From the NCBI GenBank assembly GCA_020047915.1, contig JAIFND010000039.1, forward strand, positions 1 through 60,740: DNA of 60,740 bases. Direction: 5' to 3'. A program made the position numbers and the translations under genes. This stretch comes from a bacterium (GTDB lineage: Bacteria > Planctomycetota > UBA11346). The notes beneath the pieces were generated by a model. It saw only the letters and a program-made list of their open reading frames with translations, was not told where the DNA came from and ran no database searches. Position 1 is the stretch's first letter. Each line of letters opens with the position of its first letter. Below are positions 6,555-56,606 of the stretch, piece after piece.

Positions 6555-6677
6555 GGCGGAAGGCGGAAGGCGGAAGGCGGAAGATCGGCACGCAGGCGAG
6601 TTGGAATGGGCATCAGGCAGGCACGCGCAGCGCGCAGCAATTCTTCCGCCTTCCGCCTTCCGCCTTCCGCCTTCCGG
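6555..6677. repeat. Inverted tandem-heptamer element E2. (GGCGGAA)x4 at 6555-6583, 59-nt spacer, (CTTCCGC)x5 at 6643-6677. Sits in the flgH-flgI intergenic gap.
   Basis: Read directly; four units pair perfectly. Confidence 0.9.
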
Positions 6678-7646: not shown

Positions 7647-9152
7647 TCATGCCGTGGCCGGCTGACCCAGGACCGTAATATAGACCACAGCCTGGTCGCG
7701 CGGGATGCCGAGCAGGTCGGCGGTGTGGTCGTCGAAGAAGCCGCCGATGCCGCTCGCCCCCAGACCTTCGCCCAGCGCAGCCAGGTTCATGCGCTGGCCG
7801 ATGACGCCCGCATCCAGGTGGAGATAGCGGTAGGTGCGGTCGCCCTGGGCGCGCACGCAGGCCTGCAGGTCGGCGGTGTGGAAGATCATCGCCCCGGCGT
7901 CGCCACCGAGATCCTGACCGAGGGCGATGAAGCGCGCCGCCTCGCGCGGGTCGCCCGGCCGCACCGGCCGCAGCTCGAGCTGGTGCGGAGCAAGGTAGTA
8001 CACGCCGGGCGCGACCCCCTCGACGCTGATGATGGCGATGAAGGTCGAGAGACTGCCGCGATCGAAGGAGGGCTGTTCGCCGAGCGCGACCTGCTCGGGC
8101 AGATAGGACGCGGCGAGGATGCGCGCCAGCGCATCGCGGCTGATCGGTCCGGGGTGGAAACGGCGGCAGCTGCGCCGGCGCAGGATGGTGCCGAGCTGGT
8201 CGCCAGCCAGCGGCACGGGGCCGGCGCAACCCGCTCCGCGCAGACGGTCGCCCGAGGCCCAGCCATGCGCCAGTTCCAGGGCGTCCGAGGCGACCTCGCC
8301 CTGCGCGACCAGGCGCGGCCGCACCTCGGGCAGCCGGCTGGCGCGATGCAGCAGATCGAGCGACGGAGCGCTGGCCGCATCGCTAGCCGGGCTGGGCAGG
8401 GCGGTCCACGATGGCCGCTCGGCCGGACCGGGGAGATTCAGCGCCAGCAGGGCGAGCACGCCTTCGTGCTCGCCTTCGAGGCGCAGGGCGTCATCGGCAC
8501 GCTGGTCGCAGAACGCGGCAGTGGCATGCAGGCGCAGGCCGAGGGCATGCGCGACCAGGCCGGCGTTGCCGATGAGGTGGCCGATGTCGAGCAGGATGCG
8601 GCGGTAGGCGCGTTCCTGGTAGCGCCAGCGACTGCGCTGCCACACCCCGGTGACGGCGGCGATCACCGGCGCAGCGGCCAGGGCGGCGTTGCCATAGGCG
8701 GACGCGGTCAAGGCGGCATGCAGATCGCCACCATCGGCCAGCAGCACCAGGCGGTGCCGCCGCGGATCATAGCCGTACAGTCCGGGTTCGAGGCCGGGCC
8801 AGTCGCGTACCGCGAGATACATCTCTGCCGGGTACAATCCGCCTGCCGACGGGGCGGCACGCAGCAGCAGGTCGCGGCCCGGATTGCGCATCACGGCGGT
8901 GACGCCGTAGGTGAAGTAGATCCAACGCGACAGCGCCGCCAGGGTCCGCCCCTGCCACGCCCCGGTCGCCTGCGGCGGCTTGCCGGTGAAGGGGTTGGGG
9001 TCGAGGGGCAGGAGATGGGCGAGTTCAACCCCGCCATCGCTGTGGTATTCCTTCCACGCCAGCGGCTGGCTGTCCCAATCGAGTCCGGGATGCCCGCCGA
9101 TCGTCTCGGGGGCGTACTTGGTCGATTGGTGGTAGCGTATAGCCAGGCTCAT
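7647..9152 (-). CDS. SagB-type dehydrogenase / tandem nitroreductase-fold protein.
   Basis: N-terminus MSLAIRYHQSTKY and PSAGGLYP motifs. Two nitroreductase-like halves over 501 aa. Confidence 0.7.
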   Translation of the reverse strand: MSLAIRYHQSTKYAPETIGGHPGLDWDSQPLAWKEYHSDGGVELAHLLPLDPNPFTGKPPQATGAWQGRTLAALSRWIYFTYGVTAVMRNPGRDLLLRAAPSAGGLYPAEMYLAVRDWPGLEPGLYGYDPRRHRLVLLADGGDLHAALTASAYGNAALAAAPVIAAVTGVWQRSRWRYQERAYRRILLDIGHLIGNAGLVAHALGLRLHATAAFCDQRADDALRLEGEHEGVLALLALNLPGPAERPSWTALPSPASDAASAPSLDLLHRASRLPEVRPRLVAQGEVASDALELAHGWASGDRLRGAGCAGPVPLAGDQLGTILRRRSCRRFHPGPISRDALARILAASYLPEQVALGEQPSFDRGSLSTFIAIISVEGVAPGVYYLAPHQLELRPVRPGDPREAARFIALGQDLGGDAGAMIFHTADLQACVRAQGDRTYRYLHLDAGVIGQRMNLAALGEGLGASGIGGFFDDHTADLLGIPRDQAVVYITVLGQPATA

Positions 9153-9258
9153 CGCCGGTGATTCTCAGGGGCGACGCCATCGGCCAACGGGAAAGACCAC
9201 TGGCCTGGACAGCCAGCATCCATTGCCCCAGGCGCGCGGGCCGCGCGCGATCCCAGGT

Positions 9259-19373: not shown

Positions 19374-19438
19374 GTGGCATGGGCGTCCCGCCCATGTGCA
19401 TGAGCCTCGTCGATCACGGGCGAGACGCCCGTGCCACA
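19374..19438. repeat. Two adjacent small GC hairpins (catgggcg-tcc-cgcccatg and cacgggcg-aga-cgcccgtg). The second (19407-19438) is repeated exactly at 32975-33006.
   Basis: A 32-nt identity, tcgtcgatcacgggcgagacgcccgtgccaca, occurs at both loci. Confidence 0.8.
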
Positions 19439-20640: not shown

Positions 20641-22356
20641 ATGAAGCGCTCGATCGCGCTCGGCCACTGCATCTGCGATCCGCGCCTGGGCTGCCCCTGT
20701 CCGACCCTGAAGAACGAGGACCGCTGCCCCTGCGCCGGCGAAACCGCGCCGGAACCACCCGCCGATGCCGTGATCCGGCTGACCCAGAGCGTCAAGGCGG
20801 CGGGCTGCGGCGCCAAGATCGGCAAGGCGCAACTCGCGAGCCTGCTCGGCAACCTGCCGGTGATCGATGATCCGCGCGTCCTGATCGGGTCGGCGGCCGG
20901 CGACGATGCCGCCGTGCTGCGCCTGGACGGGTCGCGCGATGACCTGGTGCAGACCGTCGATGTGCTCTCGCCGCCGGTCGATGATCCCTACAGCTACGGC
21001 CGCATCGCCGCCGCCAACGCCCTGTCCGACATCTGGGCGATGGGCGGCCGCGCGGAATGCTCCCTGTCGGTGGTCGGTTGGCCGATGCACGACCTACCGC
21101 CCAGCGCGCTGGCCGAGGTGCTGCGCGGCGGGGCCGAGGCGATGCGCGAGGCCGGCGTGCCGGTGGTCGGCGGGCAAAGCGTCAACGCCGCCGAACCCTT
21201 CGCCGGCTACAGCGTCACCGGCACCGTGGCCGCCGGGCGCGCGATCCGCAATCAGGGCGCGCAACCGGGCGATGTGCTGGTGCTGAGCAAGGCGCTGGGC
21301 GGCGGGTTCCTGGGGTTCGCGCAGCAGATCGGCCTACTCGCGCCCGAGCACCTCGCCGCCTGGACGGCGCAGATGGCGGCCTTCAACCGCGCCGCCGGCG
21401 AGGCCATGGCGCGGCATGGCGCGCATGCCGGCACCGATGTGACCGGCTTCGCCCTGCTCGGCCATGCGATCGAGATCGCCATGCGCTCGCCGTGCGATCT
21501 GGTCATCGATTTCGATCGCCTGCCGATCCATCCCGGCGTCCAGGACCTGGCCCGCCGCGAGGTGTGGCCGGGAGCCCTGGAGCGCAACCGCGAGGCAGTC
21601 GCGCCCGAGCGCCTTGACCTCGCCGGTCTGAGCCCCGCCCAGATCGCCGTCCTGTTCTGCCCCGAGACCTCGGGCGGCATCCTCGCCTTCCTGCCCGCCG
21701 ATGCGGTGTTTGGCTACCGTGCCGACTGCGCCACCGCCGGGGTGGCGACCAGCGTGATCGGCGAGGTCGTGGCCGGCACCGGGCGCATCCGCGTCACCAC
21801 CAGCGATGCCGCCGCGTGGTCGCCGCTGGGCATCCCGAAATCTAAGGCTCCGGCGCCGACCGCCGCCAAGCTGGCGGCCATGGAAAAAGCTGGAGGCTGG
21901 AAGCTGGAGGCTGGAAGCGTGGCCATCCAGGACCTCGCTACCATCGCAGATCCTGCACATCGCCTCGCCACTGCGATCGCCGCCGCTCCTCCAGCCTCCA
22001 GCCCCCAGCCTCCAGCCCTCCTCCCCGAGACACCGTGCTGCGCCGAACCGCCCGCCACGGCCAACGCCATGGCCCCGCTGCCTACCGTCAGCGGCCTGCC
22101 GCCCGCCGCCGCTGCAGCGGCCTTCACCGCCTACATGCAGGCGGTGACCGCGCCGGGCGCCCTCGACGCGCGGACCAAGAAGCTGATCGCGCTGGCCCTG
22201 TCGGTGGCCGGGCGCTGCGAACCGTGCGTCGGCATCAACGCCGAGGGCGCGCAGAAGGCCGGCGCCGACCAGGCGCAGATCGCCGAAGCAGTGGCCCTGG
22301 GCATCGCCTTCGGTGGCGCCCCGACCGCGATGTTCTACAACGGCCTGCGGAAATAA
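20641..22356 (+). CDS. selD: Selenophosphate synthetase SelD (Cys form) with a Cys-rich N-terminal extension, fused through a repeat-derived linker to a C-terminal AhpD/carboxymuconolactone-decarboxylase-like CxxC domain. Alternative start at 20605.
   Basis: IRLTQSVKAAGCGAKIG, DDAAV, FGRIAAANALSDIWAMGG-type motifs. No stop until 22354-22356. C-terminus ALSVAGRCEPCVGINAEGAQKAG is an AhpD-like core. Confidence 0.85.
   Translation: MKRSIALGHCICDPRLGCPCPTLKNEDRCPCAGETAPEPPADAVIRLTQSVKAAGCGAKIGKAQLASLLGNLPVIDDPRVLIGSAAGDDAAVLRLDGSRDDLVQTVDVLSPPVDDPYSYGRIAAANALSDIWAMGGRAECSLSVVGWPMHDLPPSALAEVLRGGAEAMREAGVPVVGGQSVNAAEPFAGYSVTGTVAAGRAIRNQGAQPGDVLVLSKALGGGFLGFAQQIGLLAPEHLAAWTAQMAAFNRAAGEAMARHGAHAGTDVTGFALLGHAIEIAMRSPCDLVIDFDRLPIHPGVQDLARREVWPGALERNREAVAPERLDLAGLSPAQIAVLFCPETSGGILAFLPADAVFGYRADCATAGVATSVIGEVVAGTGRIRVTTSDAAAWSPLGIPKSKAPAPTAAKLAAMEKAGGWKLEAGSVAIQDLATIADPAHRLATAIAAAPPASSPQPPALLPETPCCAEPPATANAMAPLPTVSGLPPAAAAAAFTAYMQAVTAPGALDARTKKLIALALSVAGRCEPCVGINAEGAQKAGADQAQIAEAVALGIAFGGAPTAMFYNGLRK
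21889..22024. repeat. Inverted tandem-heptamer element F1. (GCTGGAR)x4 at 21889-21918, 66-nt spacer, (CYCCAGC)-type arm at 21985-22024. Lies inside the selD ORF.
   Basis: gctggaggctggaagctggaggctggaagc ... gctcctccagcctccagcccccagcctccagccctcctcc. Translated in frame as AGGWKLEAGS ... APPASSPQPPALLP. Confidence 0.85.
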
Positions 22357-22360
22357 CCGC

Positions 22361-23734
22361 ATGGACACCGACCTGCTGCGCCGCATCCCAGCCGCCGGCA
22401 CACTGCTTAACCGACCGCCGGTGCAGGCCTTGGTGGCCGCGCACGGCCACGGCCTGGTGCGCCACTGCCTGCGCCTGCTGCTCGACGAGCTGCGCGCCGC
22501 CGCCAAGGCCGGTTCAACACCGCCCGCCGCCGAGGAGCTGGAGCGCGAACTCACCGCGCGCGTCCGGCGCATCGCCGTGCCCGCGCTGCGCCGCGTGGTC
22601 AACGCCAGCGGCGTGCTGCTGCACACTGGCCTGGGCCGCAGCCCATTGTGCGATGAGGCGGTGGCGGCGCTGACCGCAGCCGCCGGCTACAGCGCGGTGC
22701 AGGCCAGCCTGGGCAGCGGCGACCGCAGCCTGCGCGAAGAACGTATCGAGCGCATGCTGTGTGAGCTGACTGGCTGCGAAGCGGCGACCGTGGTCAACAA
22801 CAACGCCGCCGCGACCATGCTGATGCTCGCGACGCTCGGAGGCGGCCGCGAGGTGGTGGTGTCGCGCGGCCATCTCGTCGAGATCGGCGGCAGCTACCGC
22901 ATGCCCGATGTCATGGCCATGAGCGGCTGCACCCTGGTCGAGGTCGGCTGCACCAACCGCACCCACCTGCGCGACTACGAACGCGCGATCACCCCGCAGA
23001 CCGCCGCGCTGCTGCATGTCCACACCAGCAACTACCGCATCCGCGGCTTTGCCGGCACGCCCGGCATTGCCGAGCTGGCGGGCCTGGCCAAGGCCAAGGG
23101 CGTGCTGGCCCTCGACGACATCGGCAGCGGCGCGCTGGTGCCGCTCTCCACCGTCGGGGTCGAGGACGAACCGCTGGTCGCAGCGAGCATCGCAGCCGGG
23201 GCCGAAATCGCCTGCTTCAGCGGCGACAAGCTGATCGGCGGCCCGCAGGCCGGCATCCTGGTCGGCAGCCGCGCCGCCATCACCCGCCTGCGCGCCAACC
23301 CCTACGCGCGCATGTTCCGCGTCTGCAAGCTGACCCTCGCCGCCCTCGAGGCGACCCTGGTGCACTACCTCAACGGCACCTGGCGCGAGGCCATCCCGTT
23401 CTGGGCTATGGCCTCGCGGCCGGCCAGCGAGATCGCTGCCGACGCTGCGGCCCTGGCGGCGCGCTGCGCCGACATCTCCGGCCTGCGGGCGCGGGTAGTC
23501 GAAACGGTGGCCTTCGTCGGCAGCGGTTCGGCGCCCGACGAGGGCATCGCCAGCGCCGGACTGCGCCTGAGCGCCGTCGGCATCGAGGCCGGCGAGCTGG
23601 CCAGACGCCTGCGCACCGGCGAACCAAGCGTTTTCGTGCGCCTTGAGGACGGTGCCTGCATCGCCGACTGCCGCACCCTGCGCCCGGGTGACGCCGAGCA
23701 GTTGCTGGCGGCTCTGCGTCGGGCGATGGGGTGA
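22361..23734 (+). CDS. selA: L-seryl-tRNA(Sec) selenium transferase SelA.
   Basis: N-terminus MDTDLLRRIPAAGTLLNRP, body VNNNAAATMLML...FSGDKLIGGPQAGILVG (PLP Lys region). Starts 5 nt after the selD stop. Confidence 0.9.
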   Translation: MDTDLLRRIPAAGTLLNRPPVQALVAAHGHGLVRHCLRLLLDELRAAAKAGSTPPAAEELERELTARVRRIAVPALRRVVNASGVLLHTGLGRSPLCDEAVAALTAAAGYSAVQASLGSGDRSLREERIERMLCELTGCEAATVVNNNAAATMLMLATLGGGREVVVSRGHLVEIGGSYRMPDVMAMSGCTLVEVGCTNRTHLRDYERAITPQTAALLHVHTSNYRIRGFAGTPGIAELAGLAKAKGVLALDDIGSGALVPLSTVGVEDEPLVAASIAAGAEIACFSGDKLIGGPQAGILVGSRAAITRLRANPYARMFRVCKLTLAALEATLVHYLNGTWREAIPFWAMASRPASEIAADAAALAARCADISGLRARVVETVAFVGSGSAPDEGIASAGLRLSAVGIEAGELARRLRTGEPSVFVRLEDGACIADCRTLRPGDAEQLLAALRRAMG

Positions 23735-23737
23735 TGG

Positions 23738-23829
23738 GCTGGAAGCTGGAAGCTGGAAGCTGGAAGCTGGAAGCATGATCCATCCACGGCTTCTCGTTCC
23801 TGTCGCCCCTCCAGCCTCCAGCCTCCAGC
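23738..23829. repeat. Inverted tandem-heptamer element F2. (GCTGGAA)x5 at 23738-23774, 33-nt spacer, (CCTCCAG)x3 at 23808-23829. Fills the convergent selA/pmbA gap.
   Basis: Read directly. Each unit carries an A-versus-G difference, so the pairing is uninterrupted (G-U) only in a minus-strand transcript. Confidence 0.88.
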
Positions 23830-23834
23830 GTCCC

Positions 23835-26611: not shown

Positions 26612-29600
26612 TCAGCGCGCGGCGGTGACCGGCAGGGTGCCGCCGAGCAGGGCTGGGACGGCATCATCCGGAGTGAGCGGCAGGTCGTGGCGATGCAGCA
26701 CGACGTCGGTGGCGCCGTCGGCCCAGCGCAGGCGCAGGCGGTTCTCGCCAGCCTTCAGCAGCCAGGCAGGCAGTTCGGCGCTGGCCGATGCAGGGAAGCG
26801 CACCACATCGCGCTGCCCGTCGGCATTCTCGACGATGACATAGGTGAGACCGACCGATTCGATGTGCGCCGTGCGACCGACCTCGGCCACCAGGCGGGCG
26901 CCAGGCGTGCGTGCCGGCATGGCGATCTCACCCTGCCAGGCGAGGGGCCGGTCGTCGGCGGCGATGGCAGGATTGGAGGCCAGGCGCAGGCTGTAGGTGA
27001 CGCCGGGACGGAAGTCGCCGACCAGGCGCACGCGGCCATCACTGATGCTGGTCTGCAACGGCACGCTGGGCGTGATCGCGATCTCGCCCAGCAGAGCAGC
27101 GGGATTCAACGGCACGCGGTTGAGTTGCAGTTCGATGATGCCAGGGCCGAAGGCGGGCAGACTGGCACTGGGCGCCGAGACCGCCACTGCCGGCAGCGTG
27201 CGCACGGTGAAGCTCGGCACGCGCTCGCGCGCGAAGCGGAAGCCGCCCAGGGCGCGCAACTCGTCGCTGAACGCCAGGCTGACGGTGGCGTCGGCAGGCA
27301 GTTCGCCAGCCGGCGTGAACACGCAGGTGCGGGCATCCTGCCAGGCGCAGGTGCCGGCCCCGGCCGGCGTGACGACGGGCAACGGCGCGGCTGTCCGCGT
27401 CGCCTCGTCGAGCGGCAGATTGAGCGTCCACGCCACGCTCTGGCTGCGCGACACGATCGCTCCATCGCTCGGACCGCTGGCTGCCAGCACATCCCTCGGC
27501 TGATCCATCCACGCCACGAGCACGCCGACGGCCAGCACCAGGAGTGCGAGCATCGCTGCGGTCGGAAGGTGGCGGGGGCGGGACATCGTGGCGGGCTTGG
27601 GCGGGGGTGAGGTCGGGGCGGGGGTGGGTGCGGTGTTGGCGGTCTCGGGCCGGATCGGCGGCGGATCCGGGTCAGGATCCGGTGGTGGCGATGGTGGCAC
27701 TTCCGCGACAGGTGCGGGCTCGGCGATCACCGGTGCGACCGGCTCGGGTTCCGGCGGCGGCACGACCGCCTGGACGGTCTCCACCACGGCTGACACGACG
27801 AGCTGTGGAGCTGGCGCCACGGTTTCCGGGACGACCAGCCTAGCGACCGGCTCGGGGGCCGGCTCCGGAGCACACACGACGGCGACTGGTTCCGGCTCTG
27901 GGGCGGGGGCAGGAGGAACCACGACCGGAGCAACGGTGAGGGGTTCCGGCTCGGGAACAGAAGCCATCGCTACCGGTTCCGGTTCCGGTTCCGGTTCCGG
28001 TTCCGGCGCAACGGCTACTGGTTCCGGTTCCGGCGCAACGGCGACTGGTTCCGGTTCCGGCGCGGGTTCGGGCTCGGGCACAACGGCGACTGGTTCCGGT
28101 TCTGGCGTAGCGACGACCGGCTCCGGTGCCGCCGCGATCGCGACCGGTTGGGCTTCGGGATCGCTTGGCGCAGCCCGGGCAACCGGGGCTTCCTCGGCCT
28201 GCGGCACAGGCTCGGGTGGTGCTTCCGGCGCTGCGATCGGTACGACCAGCGGCGCACCGGCCTCGGGCAGCGGCAGCACGATGGGTGCCCCCGGCAACGG
28301 GTCCGGGATCACGACGCCCAGCGGCACGACCTCGAAGCTGGGCGGGGTCGGCCCGTCGGCGGTCGGCTGCGGACCCTGCGGCGTCATCTGCGGAGCGCCG
28401 GCGGCGGGATCGGGGATCGGCGGCGGAGCCTCGATGGCGGGTTTGACAACCTCGGCCACCGGCCGGGGACGCGGCGGGGCTCGCTTCGGCTTGGGCGGCT
28501 CGTCGGGCTTGGCGACCACCTCCACCACCACAGGTGGCGGGGGTGGTGGTGGCGGGGCAGGCTTGACCACGCCCGGTGGCAACGGCTCGCCGGGATGCGT
28601 CTCCTCCCACCAGGCGATGAAGCCGAGTTCGAGATCGGAAGCGCGGCCGAGCAGGCGCTCGACCCCGATCTCGCTTTCGAGGTCGCGCAGGAAGCGCTGC
28701 TCCTCGTTCTCGACCGCCGGCTCGGCCTCGTCGCCGGTCTTCTCGTCCTCGATCTCGGCGGCGCTGCCGCCGCGCGGTTGCCAGGTGACCAGGGGCGGCC
28801 GGCGCTGGCGCTTGGGCAGCTGCTCGGCCGGGCCGGGGTCGCCACCCGCGATGGCGCGCTCGTCCTCGGGCCGGAAGCGCAGGTGGACGTCGCCGTACTG
28901 CTCTTCCTGGCGCACCGTCAGCATGCGCTGACGCGTGCCTTCGAGGATCGCCATGACGATGCCGACCCGGGCGATCAGGCCGTCATCCAGGGCGAAGAGC
29001 TCGGACATGCGACCTTCGCCACGGCTGCGCATCGATTCGACGACCTGGGCGATGCGCACGCCCATCGGCACATCATCGACGATGACGGTGCGCGGGCCGA
29101 GACTGTCGATGCGCTTGAGCAGATCGAACCACAGGTTGGCCAGCGTCCCGGCCCCGACGTCCTTCAGCTCCCAGGCATCGACCTCGGCCGGATCGTCGGG
29201 CACCACCTCGCGATGACCTCGTTCGTGACGCAGGCGGCGCTCGTCGTCGCGGCGGTCGAGATCGAAGGCCGCCTCCTTGGCGGCGCGATAGACCAGCAGC
29301 TTGCGGATCAGGCCGGCGCGCGGGTCGAACTCGTCCTCGCCGTCGTCCTCGACCTCGGTGCCCTCGGGCGGCGGGGCGACCTGGCGCGCCTTGATCTCCA
29401 GCAGGGTCGCGGCCATGACCACGAAGTCGCCGGCGGCTTCGAGGTCGAGGGTGGTGCCGGCCGCCGCCGCGACCCAGGTCGCGAACTGGTCGGCGATGGT
29501 GGTGATCGGCAGATCTTTGATGTCCACCTCGGTGCGGCGCACCAGGTAGAGCAGCAGATCCATCGGGCCGCTGAACTGGTCGAGGGCGACGGTGATTCCG

Positions 29601-32619: not shown

Positions 32620-32967
32620 ATGCTGCGAGAAATGCTGATCGGCAAACTGCACCGGGGTTCGGTCACCGAGTGCCGCATCGACTACGAAGGCAGCCTAACG
32701 GTCGACCAGGATCTCATCGACGCCGCCGGCATGCTGCTGCACCAGAAGGTCCAGGTGCTGGACATCGACAACGGCGCCCGCATCGAGACCTACCTAATCG
32801 CCGGCGAGCGCGGCAGCCGCCACATCATGGTCAACGGCGCCGCCGCCCGCCTGTTCCACAAGGGCGACCGCGTCATCGTCTGCGCCTACGGCATCTGCGA
32901 CGAGACCGAGGCCCGCACCCTGGTCCCCAAAGTCGTCCTCCTCGACGCGGCCAACAACCAGATCTGA
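32620..32967 (+). CDS. panD: Aspartate 1-decarboxylase PanD.
   Basis: MLREMLIGKLHRGSVTECRIDYEGSLTVD (self-cleavage G-S), then NGARIETYLI...VNGAAAR. Confidence 0.92.
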   Translation: MLREMLIGKLHRGSVTECRIDYEGSLTVDQDLIDAAGMLLHQKVQVLDIDNGARIETYLIAGERGSRHIMVNGAAARLFHKGDRVIVCAYGICDETEARTLVPKVVLLDAANNQI

Positions 32968-32974
32968 CCCGTCA

Positions 32975-33006
32975 TCGTCGATCACGGGCGAGACGCCCGT
33001 GCCACA
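32975..33006. repeat. Second copy of the 32-nt hairpin element (cacgggcg-aga-cgcccgtg core).
   Basis: Identical to 19407-19438. Confidence 0.8.
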
Positions 33007-33020
33007 TGCGCCGTAACGCA

Positions 33021-33046
33021 AAGACCCCGGTATCCACCGGGGTCTT
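33021..33046 (+). terminator. Rho-independent terminator of panD.
   Basis: aagaccccgg-tatcca-ccggggtctt followed by gtctttcc. Confidence 0.6.
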
Positions 33047-33062: not shown

Positions 33063-33394
33063 CCAGCGCGCCAGCGCTGGCGGCCGCCAGGGGCGCGGGC
33101 GGCATACAATCGGCGCAGCCGATGCCGCCCTGGTTTCCGAGCGCAGCGAGGAAACCAAGCCCCGCCCGTGGCCGAGGGGCAGGCCCCCGGTCGTCCGGGG
33201 GCCGTGGGGACGCAGTCCCCAAGCAGAAAAACCAGCGCGCCAGCGCTGGCGGCCGCCAGGGGCGCGGGGCGGATACAATGGGCGCTAGCCCATCCGCCCC
33301 TGGTTTCCGAGCGCAGCGAGGAAACCAAGCCCCGCCCGCGGCCGAGGGGCAGGCCCCCGGTCGTCCGGGGGCCGTGGGGACGCAGTCCCCAAGC
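33063..33394. repeat. Two tandem copies (33063-33224 and 33232-33394) of a ~162-nt multi-hairpin unit in the convergent panD / outer-membrane-protein gap.
   Basis: The units are near-identical except in one hairpin (33097-33130 versus 33266-33300), where both stems change in a compensatory way. Other hairpins are tggtttcc-N12-ggaaacca, ggcccccgg-tcgt-ccgggggcc and tgggga-cgcag-tcccca. Confidence 0.85.
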
Positions 33395-34288
33395 TTACTG
33401 CGGCTTGTAGTCGAGTCCCACCGAAATCACGAAGTCCCCACCATCCTGGCCGCCATTGCGGAAGTTGTTACGGATTTCCTGCGACAACCAGAACGACGCC
33501 TCGGTCTCGACGAAGGCGTACACGTCCTGCACAAACACCGGGGTGGTGATGCGAGCGCCGGCGGCCAGGGTGGTGAGACCCGTGCTGTCCTTGCCGCCGA
33601 TCGTGTTGCGGTATTCGCTGTCGGCGAAGTTCAGTTTCTGCCACAGGGCGATGTCGAGTGAGTTGTACTGGATGAACTCGCGGCCACCGATACCGCCGCG
33701 CGTGGCGCGCCACTCGCTGCTGATGTTCTGCTCGATGCCGGCGCCGACTTCGACGCCTTCGATCGGCAGGGCCAGCCAAGCATCAGCGCCAAACCAGCGC
33801 TGCTTGCCCTTCAGGTAGTTGCGGTAGCCAGGCACATCATACGAACGCTGGTGCGGATAGGTGATCCAGGTGAAGTGCGGAATGATCTGCAGCAGGGGGA
33901 TCGAGGTGTCGCGCGGGTCGCGGATCTCAAGGGCCCAGTCCAGCTTGAGTTCAGCACGCTGCCACTGGCCGGGGCTGGTGTGGGAGCCCGGACGGCTGAC
34001 GTCCGGAGCCTGGCCGAGCGACCAGTCGGTGTTCAGGGCGATGCCGAGGCCGTAGGCGCGGAACTGGCCGTCGAGGCCGAGGGCGGCATCGTCATGCACC
34101 ACGCGGTAGTCATCGGTGATCTTGCTCTGCAGCGACGCTTCGAGACCGACATAGTACTCGGGGGTGCTGCCGGGGGCGGCACCGAGCACCAGCGGAGCGA
34201 AGGCGAACTCGTGGTCCAGGGCAGCGGCGGAGCCGGCAGCGCAGAGGGCGAGGATCGCGGGGACGAGACGGGAGGCGGAGCGAGTCAT
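33395..34288 (-). CDS. Putative outer-membrane beta-barrel protein.
   Basis: Signal peptide MTRSASRLVPAILALCAAGSAAA. Alternating hydrophobic pattern and a C-terminal VISVGLDYKPQ. The start overlaps the gpsA stop (ATGA at 34285-34288). Confidence 0.55.
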   Translation of the reverse strand: MTRSASRLVPAILALCAAGSAAALDHEFAFAPLVLGAAPGSTPEYYVGLEASLQSKITDDYRVVHDDAALGLDGQFRAYGLGIALNTDWSLGQAPDVSRPGSHTSPGQWQRAELKLDWALEIRDPRDTSIPLLQIIPHFTWITYPHQRSYDVPGYRNYLKGKQRWFGADAWLALPIEGVEVGAGIEQNISSEWRATRGGIGGREFIQYNSLDIALWQKLNFADSEYRNTIGGKDSTGLTTLAAGARITTPVFVQDVYAFVETEASFWLSQEIRNNFRNGGQDGGDFVISVGLDYKPQ

Positions 34289-35425: not shown

Positions 35426-35842
35426 TCACAGGTCTGGCAGAGCCTTCGGATCGGTGGGATCAGGCGCCGCCGGTTCGGGGACGGTGCCACCGTCAGGATC
35501 GGTACGCCGGGCGCGGCTGATGATCTCGTCCATACGGTCGCGCTTCTGCTCGCGGTCATCGAACAGCAGGCGCAGGTCGGGAACCAGGCGGGTGCGCACC
35601 GCCGGGGCGAAGCTGCGCCGCAGATGCGGACGGGCGCTTTCCAGGGCGTGCTCGGCCAGCTTGCGCTCGCGCATGCCGCCCAGCACCGTCCAGTAGGCGG
35701 TGACCAACTGCAGATCGCCGGTCAGTTCGACCCGGGTGATCGTCACCAGGCCCATGCGCGGGTCGTCGAGCCCGCGCACCGCGGTGGCGATCTCGCGGTG
35801 CAGGAGCGAGGCGAGGCGCTGCTGACGGGTCGGAGCGGACAT
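35426..35842 (-). CDS. rbfA: Ribosome-binding factor A.
   Basis: RLASLLHREIATAV...DPRMGLVTITRVELTGDLQLVTAYWTV. Lies downstream of infB. Confidence 0.88.
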   Translation of the reverse strand: MSAPTRQQRLASLLHREIATAVRGLDDPRMGLVTITRVELTGDLQLVTAYWTVLGGMRERKLAEHALESARPHLRRSFAPAVRTRLVPDLRLLFDDREQKRDRMDEIISRARRTDPDGGTVPEPAAPDPTDPKALPDL

Positions 35843-35845
35843 GGG

Positions 35846-35983
35846 GTAGCTTAGAGCTTAGAGCTTTGAGCTTTGGGCTTTGAGCCCGAAGCGGTGCGTG
35901 ATTATTGGATTGCTGTGCAGCATAGGAAAAGTTCAGCGCAAAGTGAATGGTCTGCGGACTCTAAGCTCTAAGCTCTAAGCTTA
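35846..35983. repeat. Inverted tandem-heptamer element G1. (TAGAGCT/TTGAGCT)-type arm at 35846-35885, 72-nt AT-richer spacer, (CTAAGCT)x3 arm at 35958-35983 that overlaps the infB stop codon.
   Basis: gtagcttagagcttagagctttgagctttgggctttgagc ... actctaagctctaagctctaagctta. Confidence 0.88.
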
Positions 35984-40565: not shown

Positions 40566-40712
40566 GGCGGAAGGCGGAAGGCGGAAGGCGGAAGAGTCGC
40601 TTGATGCGTGCGATCGGCATCAGTCCGGTTCACGGGCCAATGCTGCGCCCGGCGGATGGCGACGATCGCGCAACTTGGCAATTCTTCCGCCTTCCGCCTT
40701 CCTCCTTCCGCC
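40566..40712. repeat. Inverted tandem-heptamer element E3. (GGCGGAA)x4 at 40566-40594, 89-nt spacer, (TTCCKCC)x4 at 40684-40712. Lies between the RACo-like gene and nusA.
   Basis: Read directly. One unit carries a G-to-T change (cttcctcc). Confidence 0.9.
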
Positions 40713-40728
40713 TTTCGACCTGGGTGTG

Positions 40729-42242: not shown

Positions 42243-42408
42243 GGCGGAAGGCGGAAGGCGGAAGGCGGAAGAGTTGCCAAGCCGGGACGATGGACGCTGT
42301 CCGCCTGGATCAGCCCACCGCCCGTTCGGACCCAGGGCGCACGCTAAAGCTGTATCCCCGAGCGCGCAGATCCGCATTTCTTCCGCCTTCCTCCTTCCGC
42401 CTTCCGCC
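42243..42408. repeat. Inverted tandem-heptamer element E4. (GGCGGAA)x4 at 42243-42271, 108-nt spacer, (TTCCKCC)x4 at 42380-42408. Lies between the DUF1638 gene and the RACo-like gene.
   Basis: Read directly. Shares the junction motifs gagttgc and atccgcatttcttcc with E1. Confidence 0.9.
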
Positions 42409-42427
42409 TTCGTCGGCCTGCCCGCCC

Positions 42428-46449: not shown

Positions 46450-46457
46450 ATCCGTGG

Positions 46458-46552
46458 GCTGGAGGCTGAAGGCTGGAGGCTGGAGGCTCCCAGCCACCCG
46501 CCGACAGGTCCCGCGGCCCCCAGCTTCCAGCCTCCAGCTTCCAGCCTCCAGC
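46458..46552. repeat. Inverted tandem-heptamer element F3. (GCTGRAG)x4 at 46458-46487, ~32-nt spacer, (CAGCYTC)-type arm at 46520-46552. Lies between a small ORF and sppA.
   Basis: gctggaggctgaaggctggaggctggaggc ... ccagcttccagcctccagcttccagcctccagc. Confidence 0.88.
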
Positions 46553-51852: not shown

Positions 51853-54348
51853 ATGCGCTCGCGTTCACCCCTCCATAACCACCGCCTGCCGCTGACTCCG
51901 CTGCTGCTCGCCATCGCCGCCATGGTGCCAGCTGCAGAGCCCGCCGTGCAGCCGGAGGCGCCTGGAGATACGGCCGTCGCCAGCCAGCCCGGCCAGGCTG
52001 AAGTGGCTGCCGACGCCAAATACACCGAGGCCCTCGGCCGCTACCGTGCCGGCGCCTTCGCCGAGACCCTTGATCTGGTCGAGCAGGCCGTCGCCCTGTA
52101 TCCGCCCCATCGCGGCGCCCAGCAGTTGCGCAGCGATGTGCTGGCCGTGCTGTCCAACCGCGCCAACCGCCTGCGCATGGCGGCGAGCTGGTTCGGCAGC
52201 CTGCAGGACATCCGCACCCAGGAGACCGCCGTCCGCCTCAGCGCCCTGCTCGAGCGCGGCGACAAGGCGATGGCTGCGGGTGACTTCGCCGCCGCCGAGC
52301 TGGACTACGACCGGGTCGAGATCGGCATCCGCTCGTTCCCGTACAAGTTCGACTGGGGCGAACTGCCCAAGCAGGTCGCCGACAAGCGCAACGCCGCCCG
52401 CGACCGGGCGCGCGGAGCCGAACTGCAGCGTCAGCAGGACGACCGCACCGCCGCCGCCGAGACCGCCCGCCAGCAGGCCGACCTGCAGGCCGAGGCCCTG
52501 CGCCTCAAGGTCGATGAACTGATGCGCCGCGCCACCGCGGCCTTCAACCGCAAGGACTACCGTCGCTCCGAGGTCGAGGCGTGGAACGCCTACGAACTCG
52601 ACCGCCGTCGCGAGGACGCCCGCGAACTCTACCTCGATTCGCGCCGCGAAGGCCATTACTCCTTCGACGTCGCCTACCGCGTCGAGCGCACCGAAGGCAT
52701 CGCCCGGGTCGCCGAAGAGGTGCACAAGTCGCTGATCCCGCAGAACGAACTGCTGGTCTATCCCGAGGACTGGCAGCGCCGCACCTTGCGCAAGCCGCGC
52801 GAGATCGGCACCTCGAAGGCCGAGCCGTGGATGGCCGCACTCAACGACCGCATGGAACAGCGCGTCACCTTCGACTTCCAGGACCAGAGCTTCGAAGATG
52901 TCGTCACCTTCCTGCGCCAGGTGACCGGCGTGAACATCATCGTCGCGCCCGAAGTGCTGGCCGCTGCCGGCGGCGGCACGGTCACGCTCAAGGTGCGCGA
53001 CATGCGCTTCCGCGATGCGCTGAAGTGGATCCTCGAGATCACCGGCCATCACATGGCGATCCAGGACCAGGCGATCTTCATCAACAACCAGCCGGTGACC
53101 GGCGCGGTGGTGCTGCGCCTCTACGACGTCACCGACCTGATCACCCCGGTGAAGGACGAGCCGGGCGCCGAATTGGCCTACTCGGCCGCCAGCGGCGGCA
53201 GCGGCGGCGGCGACCTGCTGGGCAGCTCGGGCGGCGAAGAGACGGCTGCCGCCGACCCCGAAGCCCTGGTCACCTTTATCAAGAACAACGTCACCAAGGA
53301 CGCCTGGGACAAGGATGACGTCAGCATCCAGCAGCGCAGTGGTTCGACCCTGTTCGTCAGCCAGACCCCCGAAGGCCACGAACTGGTCGCCCAGTTGCTC
53401 GCCAACCTGCGCAACCAGACCGCCATGCAGGTCAACGTCAGCGTCCGCCTGCTTGATGTGCGCAAGGGATTCTTTGAGGAGATCGGGGTCGAGTGGCACA
53501 ACAACCCGACCAACATGATCAGTTCGCCGATCGCCAACAACTCCGGCGTCTATAACGTCACGACCAACGGCAACGCCACCTCCGGCTCGGGCACCAGCCT
53601 GGGCGGCACCCTGTACCAGCAGCTGCCCGGCAACGCCACCTCGATCGGCTATGGCATCACCCCGACGATCAACCTCGGGCAGGCCCTCCCCAAGGGCCTG
53701 GTCCTGGAAGGATTCGCCCAGGGATTCCTCGGCATGGACCAGGTCAACGCGATCTTCAGCGCCGCTGAAGACGAGACCGACGCCACGGTGCTCAACCACC
53801 CGCAGATCACCTGCTTCAACGGCCAACGTGCCAACGCCGCCTTCATCGGTCAGTACGCCTACATCAAGGACTACGAGATCGTCTCCAGCAACTACGATCC
53901 GGTGATCGAGGTGCTGAACTACGGCGACCTGCTTGATGTGCGCCCGGTGATCTCCAGCGACCGTAAGTATGTCACCATGGAGATCCGTCCGACCAACGTC
54001 GGCCTGGTCGGTGTCTTCGTCGAATACATCGCCGCCTACCAGATCGTTGGCAACACCGGTACGACCGGCGGCGTAGTCGTCCCCGCCACCTTCCCGATCG
54101 AGTTGCCGAACGTGCAGGTGCAGACCCTGCGCAGCACGGTGATGATCCCCGACCGCGGCAGCCTGCTGATCGGCGGCTTCAACCGCTCGCTGCGCCAGCG
54201 CACCCACAGCGGCATCCCCTTCCTCAGCCACATCCCCTTCCTCGGTCGTCTGTTCAGCCGCAACGGCACCTACGACGAAAGCCGCAAGATCTTCTTCCTG
54301 CTCTCCGCAACCATCCTCGACCTGGCCGAGAGCGAGCAGCAGCAGTGA
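51853..54348 (+). CDS. Secretin (GspD/PilQ family), paralogue 1, with a TPR/coiled-coil N-terminal region.
   Basis: N-domain VTFDFQDQSFEDVVTFLRQVTGVNIIV. Secretin core from NVSVRLLDVRKGFFEEIGVEW to SGIPFLSHIPFLGRLFS. Confidence 0.85.
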   Translation: MRSRSPLHNHRLPLTPLLLAIAAMVPAAEPAVQPEAPGDTAVASQPGQAEVAADAKYTEALGRYRAGAFAETLDLVEQAVALYPPHRGAQQLRSDVLAVLSNRANRLRMAASWFGSLQDIRTQETAVRLSALLERGDKAMAAGDFAAAELDYDRVEIGIRSFPYKFDWGELPKQVADKRNAARDRARGAELQRQQDDRTAAAETARQQADLQAEALRLKVDELMRRATAAFNRKDYRRSEVEAWNAYELDRRREDARELYLDSRREGHYSFDVAYRVERTEGIARVAEEVHKSLIPQNELLVYPEDWQRRTLRKPREIGTSKAEPWMAALNDRMEQRVTFDFQDQSFEDVVTFLRQVTGVNIIVAPEVLAAAGGGTVTLKVRDMRFRDALKWILEITGHHMAIQDQAIFINNQPVTGAVVLRLYDVTDLITPVKDEPGAELAYSAASGGSGGGDLLGSSGGEETAAADPEALVTFIKNNVTKDAWDKDDVSIQQRSGSTLFVSQTPEGHELVAQLLANLRNQTAMQVNVSVRLLDVRKGFFEEIGVEWHNNPTNMISSPIANNSGVYNVTTNGNATSGSGTSLGGTLYQQLPGNATSIGYGITPTINLGQALPKGLVLEGFAQGFLGMDQVNAIFSAAEDETDATVLNHPQITCFNGQRANAAFIGQYAYIKDYEIVSSNYDPVIEVLNYGDLLDVRPVISSDRKYVTMEIRPTNVGLVGVFVEYIAAYQIVGNTGTTGGVVVPATFPIELPNVQVQTLRSTVMIPDRGSLLIGGFNRSLRQRTHSGIPFLSHIPFLGRLFSRNGTYDESRKIFFLLSATILDLAESEQQQ

Positions 54349-56606
54349 CCGCAGCGGCCGGCAGGACGACGATTCGGGGGCTCGCGCGCCAGCGCGTGAC
54401 GCGCCCCGTCGTCGCCATCCTGCTGGTCGCCGCCAGCCTGGCGGGCGGCGAGGCCCTGCCGGCAGACCGGGTTGAACAACGCCAGGCCGACGAGCAGGCG
54501 CGCACCGCGGCTTTGGGACCGGCGCTGGATGACGCCCGCTTCCTGCTTGCTGCCGGCCAGGCGCGGGTGGCGGCAGACCACCTGCGCAGCGCCCTGGTCG
54601 GCGTCCCCGCCGACGCCCCGCGGCGCGCCGAGGCCGCCAGCCTGCTGGCCGAGGCTGAGTCCGCCCAGGCAGCCAACGATCTGAGCGCGGAAGACGCCGC
54701 CCGTCAGAGCAGCGCCGCCAACGCCACCGCCGGCGCCGCCCGCGAGGCCGGCGTCCGCAGCAGCCTGCGCGCCGAGCGCCTGGCCCGCATCCGCGACCTG
54801 CGTCAGCGCGAACACCACGAACTGGCCCTGGCGCACTGCCGCGTGCTGTTGCGCGACCTGCCAGCCGACACCGAGGTCGAAGCCGAGTACCGGGAACTGC
54901 TCGACCTCGCCCATGCCGCCCGCCGCAGCAGCATCGCCGAACGCGAGCGTGACCTGCGTTCCGAGATCGCCCTGTTGGTCGAACGCTCGCTGATCCCCGA
55001 AGGCTTCGATGGCGAACCGGTGTGGCCCGCGGACTGGGACCAACGCCGGGCCGGCCGGCGCAGCCGCCTGGATGCCGGCCCAGAGGCAGCGAGCGACTCG
55101 GATGCGGTACGCGACCGCCTGGCCCAGCGCGTAACCATCATCTTCGACGCGACTCCAGCTGTCGATGCCCTGGCCCAACTTGCCCGCCTCGCCGGGATCA
55201 GCATCGTGGTGGCGCCCGAACTGCAGGCCGCCGCCGACCGCATCGTCACCCTGCGCGCAGCGCGCATGCGGCTTGAAGATGTGCTGACCTGGATCACCGA
55301 ACAGGGCGGGACGCGCTGGTCGATCACCAAGGGCGCCGTCTTCGTCGGCGACCAGGCGACCAGCGACCGCACCGTCGCGCTGCATGACATCGGCGGCCTG
55401 ATGCTCGGCGCGGTGGACCAGCCCGGCCCGGTGATGGCCATGAGCACCGCCGACGGCGCCTCTGGCGGCGCCAGTCTGGTCGCCGCCGAACCGGCGGCCA
55501 CGGCCGTCGCGACCGGGGACGACATCGCCGACCTGATCCGCCGCGTGGTCAGCCCGCGGCTCTGGGAACAAGAGGGCAATGCCATCGTCGTGCGCGGGAC
55601 GACCCTGCTGGTCACCGCCCCGCAAGAGGCGCAGACCCTGATCCGCGAGTTCATCCGGGCCCAAGAGGCGCAACGCAGCCTGGCGGTGCGCATTGATGCC
55701 CGCTGGCTGGAACTGACCGACCGCTTCGTCGAGGAGATCGGCGTCCAGTGGACTTCGGGGGCCGGCACGATGGTCGCCCCGGCCAACGGCCAGCCCTCGG
55801 CTGGCTTCCTGCGCCGGACCGGTGCCTGGTCGGTGGCAGCCAACTCCACCAACCAGTTGCCAGGCACCGCCATGTCCGTGGTCCCCGCGACCAGCGGCAC
55901 CGGCCTGACCCTGCAGACCTCGTTCTTCGGTGAGAACAAGTTCAACGCCATCCTCAGCGCCCTGGAACGCAATGCCCAGGGCCGCGTGCTGCAAGCCCCC
56001 GAGGTCACCTGCCTGAACGGCCAGCAGGCGCACGCCGTCTTCGCCAGCCAGTTGGCCTACATCAGCGACTACGAGATCGTCGCCAGCTATCCCGATCCGG
56101 TCATCTCGGTGCTGAACCTGGGCACGATGATCGAGGTCCGCCCGATGATCAGCGCGGACCGCAAGTATGTCACCCTGGACCTGCGCACCTCGGTCAGTTC
56201 CGCGACCCTGTTCACGGAATACATCGACTACTTCGTGACCATTCCAGGCACCTTGCTGGATCCGAATGCGCTCACCCCGCCGCCGAATGCGGATGACGTC
56301 GGTACCCAGTACCTCGACAACCTGCTGCTCATCGAAACGTCCGCCCGCGCCCCGATCGAATTGCCGAACGTCGCCGTGCAGGCGACCGCCACCACGGTGA
56401 TGGTGCCGGATCGCGGCAGCCTGCTGGTCGGCGGCTTCACCCGCAGCCTCGACCAGTTCAGCTCGACCCGGGTGCCGCTGCTCGGATCGATCCCCTTCCT
56501 CGGCCGGCTGTTCGGCGCCCGTGGGCGCTACGCCGACCGCACCAAGCTCTACCTGATGTCCACCGTCTCGATCATCAACTACCCGGAACTGGAGGCCCGC
56601 CTGTGA
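54345..56606 (+). CDS. Secretin (GspD/PilQ family), paralogue 2.
   Basis: GTGA overlap. VTIIFDATPAVDALAQLARLAGISIVV, AVRIDARWLELTDRFVEEIGVQW, RVPLLGSIPFLGRLFG. Confidence 0.85.
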   Translation: MTAAAGRTTIRGLARQRVTRPVVAILLVAASLAGGEALPADRVEQRQADEQARTAALGPALDDARFLLAAGQARVAADHLRSALVGVPADAPRRAEAASLLAEAESAQAANDLSAEDAARQSSAANATAGAAREAGVRSSLRAERLARIRDLRQREHHELALAHCRVLLRDLPADTEVEAEYRELLDLAHAARRSSIAERERDLRSEIALLVERSLIPEGFDGEPVWPADWDQRRAGRRSRLDAGPEAASDSDAVRDRLAQRVTIIFDATPAVDALAQLARLAGISIVVAPELQAAADRIVTLRAARMRLEDVLTWITEQGGTRWSITKGAVFVGDQATSDRTVALHDIGGLMLGAVDQPGPVMAMSTADGASGGASLVAAEPAATAVATGDDIADLIRRVVSPRLWEQEGNAIVVRGTTLLVTAPQEAQTLIREFIRAQEAQRSLAVRIDARWLELTDRFVEEIGVQWTSGAGTMVAPANGQPSAGFLRRTGAWSVAANSTNQLPGTAMSVVPATSGTGLTLQTSFFGENKFNAILSALERNAQGRVLQAPEVTCLNGQQAHAVFASQLAYISDYEIVASYPDPVISVLNLGTMIEVRPMISADRKYVTLDLRTSVSSATLFTEYIDYFVTIPGTLLDPNALTPPPNADDVGTQYLDNLLLIETSARAPIELPNVAVQATATTVMVPDRGSLLVGGFTRSLDQFSSTRVPLLGSIPFLGRLFGARGRYADRTKLYLMSTVSIINYPELEARL

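Follow-up and report, generated by a model that had tools for sequence, protein, structure and literature searches.

Two adjacent hairpin-rich units, termed A and B, at positions 33063-33394 of a Planctomycetota contig are neighbouring copies of a modular interspersed repeat of an uncultured Planctomycetota clade. The contig (JAIFND010000039.1, GenBank assembly GCA_020047915.1, lineage UBA11346) was analysed over a stretch of 60,740 nucleotides, called the window throughout the paper, and the units lie in it between panD and a gene for a predicted outer-membrane beta-barrel protein (OMP gene). With a probability of about 0.7 we consider the family a mosaic repeat similar to repetitive extragenic palindromes (REP) and bacterial interspersed mosaic elements (BIME), which folds as the + strand, is probably mobilised in single-stranded form by an HUH transposase and maybe has a role for the host at gene 3' ends. 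A preliminary description, made from the letters of the window alone, had already pointed to a REP/BIME-like element, with an independent sRNA as the other candidate. The REP/BIME-like reading was supported by at least 110 units in at least 15 metagenome-assembled genomes (MAGs), by hairpins tagged with GT[AG]G, by mosaics and arrays, and by the location at gene 3' ends.

Structure of the two units

The tandem pair of near-identical multi-hairpin units of about 162 nt, from which the preliminary description had started, was recovered by Tandem Repeats Finder at 33063-33394 with a period of 170, 2.0 copies, 95% matches and a score of 604. A 27-mer of the unit occurred twice in the window with 0 occurrences expected, and identical segments of 36 nt and 56 nt are common to both units. 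The units and the parts of their predicted folds are located as follows.

33063-33224, + strand: unit A, 162 nt, scoring 106.1 bits with covariance model R1 over 33080-33221
33063-33080, + strand: unit A, P1
33081-33087 and 33168-33174, + strand: unit A, outer stem
33090-33094 and 33159-33163, + strand: unit A, inner stem
33097-33130, + strand: unit A, V hairpin, with the TACAA bulge at 33105-33109
33131-33157, + strand: unit A, P4
33182-33203, + strand: unit A, P6
33205-33221, + strand: unit A, P7
33225-33231: A-rich spacer agaaaaa of 7 nt between the units
33232-33394, + strand: unit B, 163 nt, scoring 95.5 bits with model R1 over 33249-33391
33232-33249, + strand: unit B, P1
33266-33300, + strand: unit B, V hairpin, with the TACAA bulge at 33274-33278 and a GCTA loop
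33301-33327, + strand: unit B, P4
33339, + strand: unit B, C in place of the T of unit A
33352-33373, + strand: unit B, P6
33375-33391, + strand: unit B, P7

Each unit was predicted to fold into P1, a three-way junction in which an outer and an inner stem enclose the bulged V hairpin and P4, and the hairpins P6 and P7. The further hairpins claimed before for each unit were found again as P1, P4, P6 and P7, together with the two enclosing stems. Minimum free energies were -109.8 kcal/mol for unit A and -112.2 kcal/mol for unit B on the + strand (z = -5.9 and -5.8), and -104.3 and -107.3 kcal/mol, respectively, on the - strand (z = -4.0 and -4.4).

The V hairpin reads GGGCGGCA-TACAA-TCGGC-GCA-GCCGA-TGCCGCCC in unit A (33097-33130) and GGGGCGGA-TACAA-TGGGC-GCTA-GCCCA-TCCGCCCC in unit B (33266-33300), and the strings quoted in the preliminary description were exact. 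Its observation of two-sided changes in the outer and inner stems of this hairpin around an unchanged TACAA also held. In three base pairs of the outer stem and one of the inner stem both partners are exchanged, G-C having become C-G or the reverse; the loop of unit B carries an extra T, and all 13 base pairs of V are paired in unit A as well as in unit B. Outside V the sole difference is T33169 versus C33339, giving a G-U or a G-C pair in a stem of the + strand. Counting all columns, 9 of 35 differ in the V hairpin versus 1 of 128 elsewhere (Fisher p = 3e-6).

A dispersed repeat family of Planctomycetota

Using nhmmer with a profile of five unit variants, a match with E = 2e-12 was obtained at L039 5934-6059, a different locus of a distant relative. 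In this MAG, whose OMP is only 53% identical, the matched unit is flanked by a different pair of convergent genes; it has the same 32-nt V hairpin and keeps the P4 fold through three compensated pairs. A scan of the GTDB genomes with the V pattern GGSSGSATACAATSGGCGC yielded more than 103 stretches among the matches listed, most of them in Planctomycetota MAGs. The remaining matches were isolated chance matches, mostly in coding-looking sequence of other phyla and without the family flanks. Model R1 (134 positions, 43 pairs), which was built from 57 units, detected at least 110 units in 83 sources from 15-16 Planctomycetota MAGs, including some copies missed by the V pattern. At least 38 units were present in JACCZE01 (on 21 contigs), at least 20 in CAZZAM01 and at least 12 in JBBREK01, all copy numbers of the family being lower bounds. 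The preliminary description stood or fell with other genomic copies; these exist, and the changes in their V stems are compensatory.

Exact 27-mer and 30-mer scans of the GTDB genomes, a set from which the window species is absent, gave 0 matches, P4 being variable. Viral contigs and plasmids contained no family copies. The comparison with Rfam proposed in the preliminary description returned no family at the gathering threshold, be it for the window region (best score 23.8 bits versus a threshold of 114), for ten family loci (0 matches) or for locus L140 (best score 25.5 versus 72.5). Matches at relaxed thresholds (BSnc120, a guanidine-II half-site, xerDC and others) were rejected as noise, and a tRNA/tmRNA scan gave nothing at the unit site. 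A search of the accessible literature by sequence strings found no paper with the element, returning only primers or vectors, or nothing.

Architecture and covariation of the family

A family unit of about 130-165 nt consists of two parts, a three-way junction and, following it, two REP-type hairpins, P6 and P7. On the + strand the consensus of the 5' part is cGGGC-GCCGAG-nnnn-GGT-[V: GGCGGCA-TACAA-TCGGC-GCA-GCCGA-TGCCGCC]-AC-[P4, variable], continued in the 3' part by GAG-n'n'n'n'-GACAAA-GCCCG-GGGGTAGG-[P6]-CCGTA-[P7: GGGGC-GAA-GCCCC]-TGAGCAAA. The junction is composed of the outer stem, a conserved internal loop and the inner stem, and bears the nearly invariant TACAA-bulged V hairpin and the freely variable P4. 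Invariant unpaired nucleotides are those of the TACAA bulge, of the GCCGAG/GACAAAG internal loop and of GGGGTAGG, while the adjoining stems covary freely. Six typical family units each folded separately into the same predicted architecture. The sequence and loop of P6 vary freely (GCA, GAA, TCAC and others), and partial units, extra P6-P7 modules and module mosaics occur. The tetranucleotide GTAG stands 5' of both P6 and P7 in the family; in the window it is GTGG before P7 (33204-33207) and a degenerate GCAG before P6. A pairing of GGGG before P6 with CCCC of P7, proposed by RNAalifold, was treated as an alignment artefact, and P7 was specified by hand.

In alignment A2, 95.0% of the cells pair, compared to 81.5% in shuffles and 28-45% with slid partners. 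Across A2 and the model-fitted alignment A3 the shuffles gave 79-82%, versus 95% observed. Two-sided changes were found for 30 of the 43 pairs in A2 and 37 of 43 in A3, and the covariation score was 0.332 in A2, versus 0.086 in shuffles (reached by 0 of 500), and 0.336 in A3. We are aware that V was pre-filtered for complementarity in A2; the outer stem, the inner stem, P4 and P6 were unfiltered and carry most of the signal. As units of one genome are related, there are fewer independent events than the cell counts suggest. The V hairpin occurs with the outer stems GGCGGCA/TGCCGCC, GGGCGGA/TCCGCCC and GGCGGGA/TCCCGCC and with the inner stems TCGGC/GCCGA, TGGGC/GCCCA and TCGCC/GGCGA, all of them compensated. 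L118 carries a half-compensated intermediate of the inner stem, and in L057 and L071 the change is complete. Compensatory change clearly maintains the fold throughout the family. Selection on the fold, which the preliminary description had deduced from covariation within the duplication, is borne out at the level of the family, where 95% of the cells are paired; the A/B pair alone does not count as independent evidence for it.

Cells of the G-U type outnumbered those of the A-C type, 36 versus 17 (p about 0.01, the cells not being independent; A-C counts in P7 were left out of this comparison for a register error). The + strand is further marked by the GT[AG]G tags 5' of P6 and P7, by tandem G.A pairs in P4 (read on the opposite strand they would be C.U), by GNA and GNNA loops, by the G-U at 33169 and by slightly better folding energies. 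One change in L021 runs counter to a + strand fold and reads better on the - strand, where a U.C mismatch becomes G.U. We assign the fold to the + strand with moderate confidence.

The apex of P4 (window positions 33134-33154 and 33304-33324) is built as stem-GAGCGNAGCGA-stem, with tandem G.A, two G-C pairs and a GNA triloop. Its exact 21-mer, TTTCCGAGCGCAGCGAGGAAA, recurs in hairpin repeats of unrelated low-GC and high-GC bacteria (contigs L007-L017), and covarying versions, e.g. GAGTGTAACGA, were seen in these unrelated metagenome contigs. One of them, L011, encodes an IS200/RAYT-like Y1_Tnp protein at 8597-9196 (Pfam E = 8e-8), the only match of the transposase search. The hairpins found in the metagenome scan with this 21-mer were classified as look-alikes in unrelated bacteria and not as family members.

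The same locus in related strains and the origin of the difference between A and B

The locus was recovered from other samples by exact-protein look-ups; a related-locus search with GpsA as sole query gave no relatives. Near-identical strains, represented by short-read assemblies with flanks of 99.6-100% identity, show one unit, of A-type in L001 and of B-type in L002. A single unit was also found at the same site of a sister lineage, whose OMP is 92% identical in protein and 88% in DNA. There, an A-type unit is followed by the remnant aaaaag+ccccaagc in the strains L019, L020, L024 and L026, and a B-type unit is present in L021 and L023. The sister-lineage assemblies were built at k=141 and should resolve A- and B-type variants. 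Comparing window A with L019, 5 differences were observed, and 6 between window B and L021, all located in loops, in the junction or in a non-canonical P4 pair. The unit at the orthologous site is 96-97% conserved versus 75-90% at third codon positions, which in the flanking genes differ at 10-25% from the sister lineage. From these positions 16-40 differences are expected per 162 nt, and 5-6 were observed (P <= 0.0012 to 3e-12). The spacer from the panD stop codon to the terminator hairpin described below is not alignable between the lineages, and in more distant relatives no such element was found between panD and the OMP gene. Some of these relatives have a different multi-hairpin element of about 125 nt downstream of the OMP gene, seen in L036 (3874-4100), L040 (589-900) and L044 (2389-2620). 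It has a terminator-like hairpin at its end, does not match model R1 and is present as a tandem duplicate in L040.

The pair could be read as a locus-specific tandem duplication, after which one hairpin was changed stepwise by compensatory mutation under selection on the fold. Units A and B are indeed the closest relatives of each other outside V, with 1 difference in 128 columns, and the complete pairing of V in both units fits this history as well. However, the unit belongs to a family with no fewer than 110 members, both V versions of the window recur without change in distant genomes and in the sister lineage at the orthologous locus, and intermediates between the A and B versions were not found at this locus. 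Moreover, eight substitutions within 34 nt, with 1 elsewhere, fit the replacement of a module better, and other arrays show the same one-module pattern. Stepwise change at the locus is largely refuted by the family copies and the family-wide V versions, and we consider it very improbable. Judged from the compared sequences, both versions are standard variants of the family, and the A/B difference did not arise by recent compensatory change following a local duplication. Since A and B are mutual closest relatives outside V, they probably stem from a local duplication or have since been homogenised. For the difference itself module-wise replacement is the likelier origin, because neighbouring units elsewhere also differ by a whole hairpin module. 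The most parsimonious history would begin with an ancestral A-B tandem, of which one unit would have been lost in the sister strains, as supported by the L019 remnant. The module would have been exchanged by short-tract conversion between family members, and not by eight local point mutations.

An assembly artefact joining the A allele and the B allele of a single-unit locus would also produce the tandem. In its favour are the one-unit assemblies of the near-same strains L001 and L002 with their nearly identical flanks, and several contigs that break inside the unit. These points are opposed by the junction ccccaagc-agaaaaa-ccagcgc, which is unique and must exist in reads, by the related A-rich remnant after the unit in the sister-lineage strain L019, and by tandem arrays with A-rich spacers, which are common in independent assemblies of the family. 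In addition, a 170-nt repeat with identical segments of 36 nt and 56 nt is expected to collapse at k <= 55. We give the artefact slightly less credit still than the stepwise change.

Position at gene 3' ends and organisation in arrays

The location of the units 3' of both panD and the OMP gene, noted from the start, was borne out, as the units sit between convergent genes. For the family, positions were analysed by stop codons and open reading frame length (convergent frames of at least 100 codons) versus random-position controls. A convergent stop codon was found at most 20 nt from the P7 end in 22 of 52 arrays versus 4.4% of random positions (p = 1e-16), and at most 100 nt from the 3' end in 33 of 52 (controls about 21%). 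On the other side, a co-directional stop lay within 100 nt of the 5' end in 25 of 44 arrays (controls about 21%), usually at a distance of 21-100 nt. The nine tightest 3' junctions (3-5 nt) all involve TAG or TAA and none TGA (p = 3e-4); in the family genomes TGA makes up 60% of the stop codons, leaving a TAG/TAA background of 40%. The genes flanking family units are unrelated housekeeping genes (EamA transporter, NDH-2, GH10, oxidoreductases, flagellar rod proteins), and none encodes a transposase.

Family units commonly form tandem arrays of 2-4 members separated by A-rich spacers, and A-rich tails follow the units. Neighbouring units of an array are often identical save for one hairpin module, which is P6 in L140 and L071 and V in L107 and the window. 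In two different MAGs (L069 128-213 and L121 116-201, both - strand) the same foreign sequence, ATACTACCACCGAATCAAGTCC..., interrupts a family unit immediately behind GACAAAG and may be an insertion sequence targeting the repeat.

Proposed mobility and possible functions

We favour a REP/BIME-like mosaic repeat with the following mechanism. The selected, folding strand would be the + strand, on which GT[AG]G precedes the hairpins. If the element behaves like REP/RAYT and IS200/IS605, it probably spreads in single-stranded form through an HUH-Y1 transposase whose gene lies elsewhere in the genome; candidate enzymes would be a RAYT-like or a class 3 protein. The element would settle at gene 3' ends with the P7 end beside TAG or TAA stop codons of convergent genes, either by a preference for TA-containing stop codons or by retention next to them. 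Local expansion would occur by tandem duplication, and hairpin modules would be swapped between copies by short-tract conversion, so that A and B came to differ only in V. REP elements of E. coli act as stable structures at transcript ends, and the likeliest host role of the window copy would be similar, with a stable structure where the infB-rbfA-gpsA-OMP and panD transcripts converge and end. That it also serves the host is suggested by the conservation of the orthologous copy. The weakest part of this mechanism is the HUH-transposase step, which is drawn by analogy.

Several observations weigh against this proposal. An HUH-Y1 transposase was detected neither in the window nor in about 0.9 Mb of Planctomycetota loci (tblastn with RayT and IS608 TnpA probes; HUH...Y motif), a negative result that is weak because such genes are usually single-copy. 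Within the 60-kb window the family is represented at this one locus, with only units A and B scoring (106 and 95 bits). These two units are divergent, with GCCCGYGG for GACAAAG, CCAG for CCGAG and a longer P6. Terminal inverted repeats were found neither at the unit ends of the window (CCAGCGCG... / ...GTCCCCAAGC) nor at those of the family (GGGCGCCGAG... / ...GCCCCTGA), and no target-site duplication flanks the units. Miniature inverted-repeat transposable elements (MITEs) are defined by these two features, and in their absence the unit borders given above are provisional as ends of the mobile element. The near-identical strains have single units, which may reflect short-read repeat collapse rather than real alleles. 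Finally, the invariant junction nucleotides and the purifying selection on a fixed orthologous copy are explained at least as well by a functional RNA.

Such a structured RNA would form a multi-copy gene family, as a protein-binding, catalytic or cis-acting 3'-untranslated-region element, and its repeat-like spread would be secondary. Beside the invariant unpaired nucleotides (TACAA bulge, GCCGAG/GACAAAG loop, GGGGTAGG) next to covarying stems and the selection on the orthologous copy, it is favoured by the position of the units in the 3'-untranslated territory of one or both flanking genes and by the G-U excess, which indicates one folded strand. On the other hand, no Rfam family matched, the window scan found no promoter-like site at the units, and a terminator after the units on the + strand is missing. 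On the - strand, the P1 hairpin of unit B together with a UUUUUCU run from the spacer resembles an intrinsic terminator (terminator scan, 33250-33231), a pattern present neither in unit A nor in most family units. The loops vary between orthologues, which leaves no conserved seed in the unit. Repeats, unlike RNA genes, typically come as partial units, as mosaics of modules and in arrays of varying length, and the GT[AG]G tags are part of a system known to operate on DNA. Overall, we regard a functional RNA as an unlikely explanation of the family, although as the main rival one to be taken seriously.

With similar reserve, the junction core may be viewed as a new structured motif with a function of its own, the REP hairpins being no more than appendages. 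This core is made up of the CCGA(G) foot, the 6x6 internal loop GCCGAG/GACAAA, the invariant hairpin with the TACAA bulge and the variable P4. It would act either as a substrate of an enzyme of the poorly known class 3 of HUH-Y1 proteins or as a multi-copy functional RNA; we hold this tentatively, as a minority view.

On the - strand the P6 hairpins (GGCCCCCGG-ACGA-CCGGGGGCC) recall the two hairpins of the guanidine-II (mini-ykkC) riboswitch. Each P6 (33175-33202 and 33345-33372, - strand) matches one hairpin of RF01068 including the ACGA loop, with 21 bits. With a gathering threshold of 32 this score is too low, the two hairpins are separated by 170 nt versus a compact RF01068 model of 48 positions, they follow a stop codon with no gene downstream, and sequence and loop of P6 are free to vary in the family. 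Position and P6 variability refute the riboswitch, to which we attach practically no credence, and the likeness was judged coincidental.

Comparison with known repeats

Like the REP/BIME elements of E. coli, the family is extragenic, present in many copies and made of GC-rich imperfect palindromes with a 5' GT[AG]G tag. It likewise forms mosaics with other conserved motifs and tandem arrays of variable length, and is located at the 3' ends of genes, in many cases no more than about 15 nt from the stop codon. Compared to the REP definition, the 6-9-bp stem and the unpaired 5' GT[AG]G foot are found in P6 and P7 of the family and in P7 of the window, and the extragenic position at gene 3' ends is common to the window units and the family. 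Mosaic arrays of the BIME kind are seen in the combination of the junction module with two REPs, in partial units and in arrays, and an unrelated REP lies in the window spacer. The family unit is much larger than BIMEs, and nothing in them corresponds to its covarying three-way junction with the invariant bulged hairpin; the sequences are not similar, the hosts belong to another phylum and no cognate RAYT was identified for the family.

For the superphylum of Planctomycetes, Verrucomicrobia and Chlamydiae (PVC), GTAG REPs with GTGG variants and 6-9-bp stems were described, among others in Rhodopirellula baltica and Opitutus terrae (Di Nocera et al., 2013; PMC3733652). The likeness of the family to these REPs was judged by the definition of tag and stem given there. 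P6 and P7 of the family are 4-9-bp stem-loops directly after GTAG (GTGG/GCAG in the window). As described in that article, PVC REPs are single hairpins or dimers of 20-40 bp, whereas in the family two tagged hairpins stand head to tail behind a 100-nt junction.

With the REPIN-RAYT systems of Pseudomonas and others the family shares the non-autonomous repeat, the strand-specific fold, variant populations within genomes and long persistence at orthologous sites. REPINs, however, are inverted REP doublets forming one long hairpin, which the family units are not, and no RAYT was seen for the family; a REPIN-like doublet of another REP is present in the window at 19374-19437. Class 3 TnpAY1 HUH proteins occur mainly in Planctomycetes and, according to Quentin et al. 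(2018; PMC6006769), go along with high-copy "atypical secondary structures" with the 5' foot CnGA. These structures resemble the family in being high-copy and different from simple REP hairpins, and an invariant CCGA(G) directly precedes the inner stem in the family units. In the window copies CCGAG is replaced by CCAG, and the likeness, which is one by the article's description only, is regarded as a lead. A class 3 TnpAY1 gene was not found in the roughly 0.9 Mb of Planctomycetota loci examined, and the supplements of PMC6006769 held no strings matching the element.

Pneumococcal BOX and other modular repeats (Correia, RUP, ERIC) are similar to the family in their modular build, variable module number, stable folds and intergenic location. 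Correia and RUP, being MITEs, possess terminal inverted repeats and target duplications; the family has neither and shows no sequence similarity to them. By these comparisons the family appears to be a previously undescribed repeat, which is set apart from the REPs known so far by its size and by a covarying three-way junction that carries an invariant bulged hairpin.

Neighbouring genes and further repeats of the window

The following features surround the units.

32620-32967, + strand: panD (Pfam Asp_decarbox)
32983-33005, - strand: GTGG-tagged REP hairpin GTGGCACGGGCG-TCT-CGCCCGTG of a separate short repeat family, 5' of unit A
33021-33046: terminator-like hairpin AAGACCCCGG-TATCCA-CCGGGGTCTT from the terminator scan, T-rich on both strands, between panD and the units
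33395-33397, - strand: TAA stop codon of the OMP gene, directly adjoining unit B
33395-34288, - strand: OMP gene, 297 amino acids; structure predicted as an outer-membrane beta-barrel with a local distance difference test score (pLDDT) of 80.5; best matches PcoB, FapF, NanC and Tsx

The OMP gene is the last of an infB-rbfA-gpsA-OMP string on the - strand. The next match of model R1 in the window (35759-35889, + strand; 20.9 bits, E = 0.017) covers the rbfA start and the infB-rbfA spacer and is probably noise. The hairpin at 33021-33046 is kept in the sister lineage except for its loop. Besides units A and B, the panD-OMP spacer holds the GTGG-tagged REP hairpin at 32983-33005. It belongs to a second, classical REP family of the form GTGGCAYGGGCG-nnn-CGCCCRTG, for which three copies were counted in the window with 0 expected: 19374-19396 (+ strand), 19415-19437 (- strand) and 32983-33005 (- strand). 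The first two form one inverted, REPIN-like doublet (19374-19437), and the third is a singleton right after the panD stop codon. This singleton is absent at the same spot of the sister lineage and therefore probably a recent gain; the short-read contigs L003 and L004 break within it.

Further repeats were noted elsewhere in the window. Long palindromes whose simple-repeat arms (GGCGGAAG)4 and (CTTCCGCC)4 face each other about 100 nt apart are located at 1-146, 6555-6673, 40566-40714 and 42243-42410, and three copies of palindromes with (AAGCTGGAGGCTGG)n facing (CCAGCCTCCAGC)n at 21887-22013, 23729-23833 and 46456-46549. In the MAG JACCZE01, heptamer and octamer microsatellites like these palindrome arms stand just 5' of family units. 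Six copies of GC-rich repeats of 27-55 nt (CCGGTTCCGG...ACGGCGACTGG), probably coding, lie at 27847-28159 upstream of a gene for 428 amino acids. Three diverged paralogous segments (53725-53981 / 55923-56179, and 54194, 56452, 58995) with 62-78% identity and the common motif IPFLGRLF are probably tandem paralogous genes.

Implications

The family provides a well-defined and structurally elaborate interspersed repeat for a phylum whose non-coding DNA is almost unstudied. Model R1 detects these elements, which break the short-read assemblies of these MAGs. Apparent covariation between neighbouring copies can come from the swapping of ready-made hairpin modules, which calls for caution in RNA-motif discovery. 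The abutment to TAG and TAA stop codons and the signals confined to one strand are hints on how such elements insert or are selected. If the junction core were the recognition and cleavage substrate of a class 3 HUH-Y1 enzyme, this orphan class of transposases would be linked to its element; if it were a functional RNA, a catalytic RNA or a protein sponge would be transcribed at gene ends.

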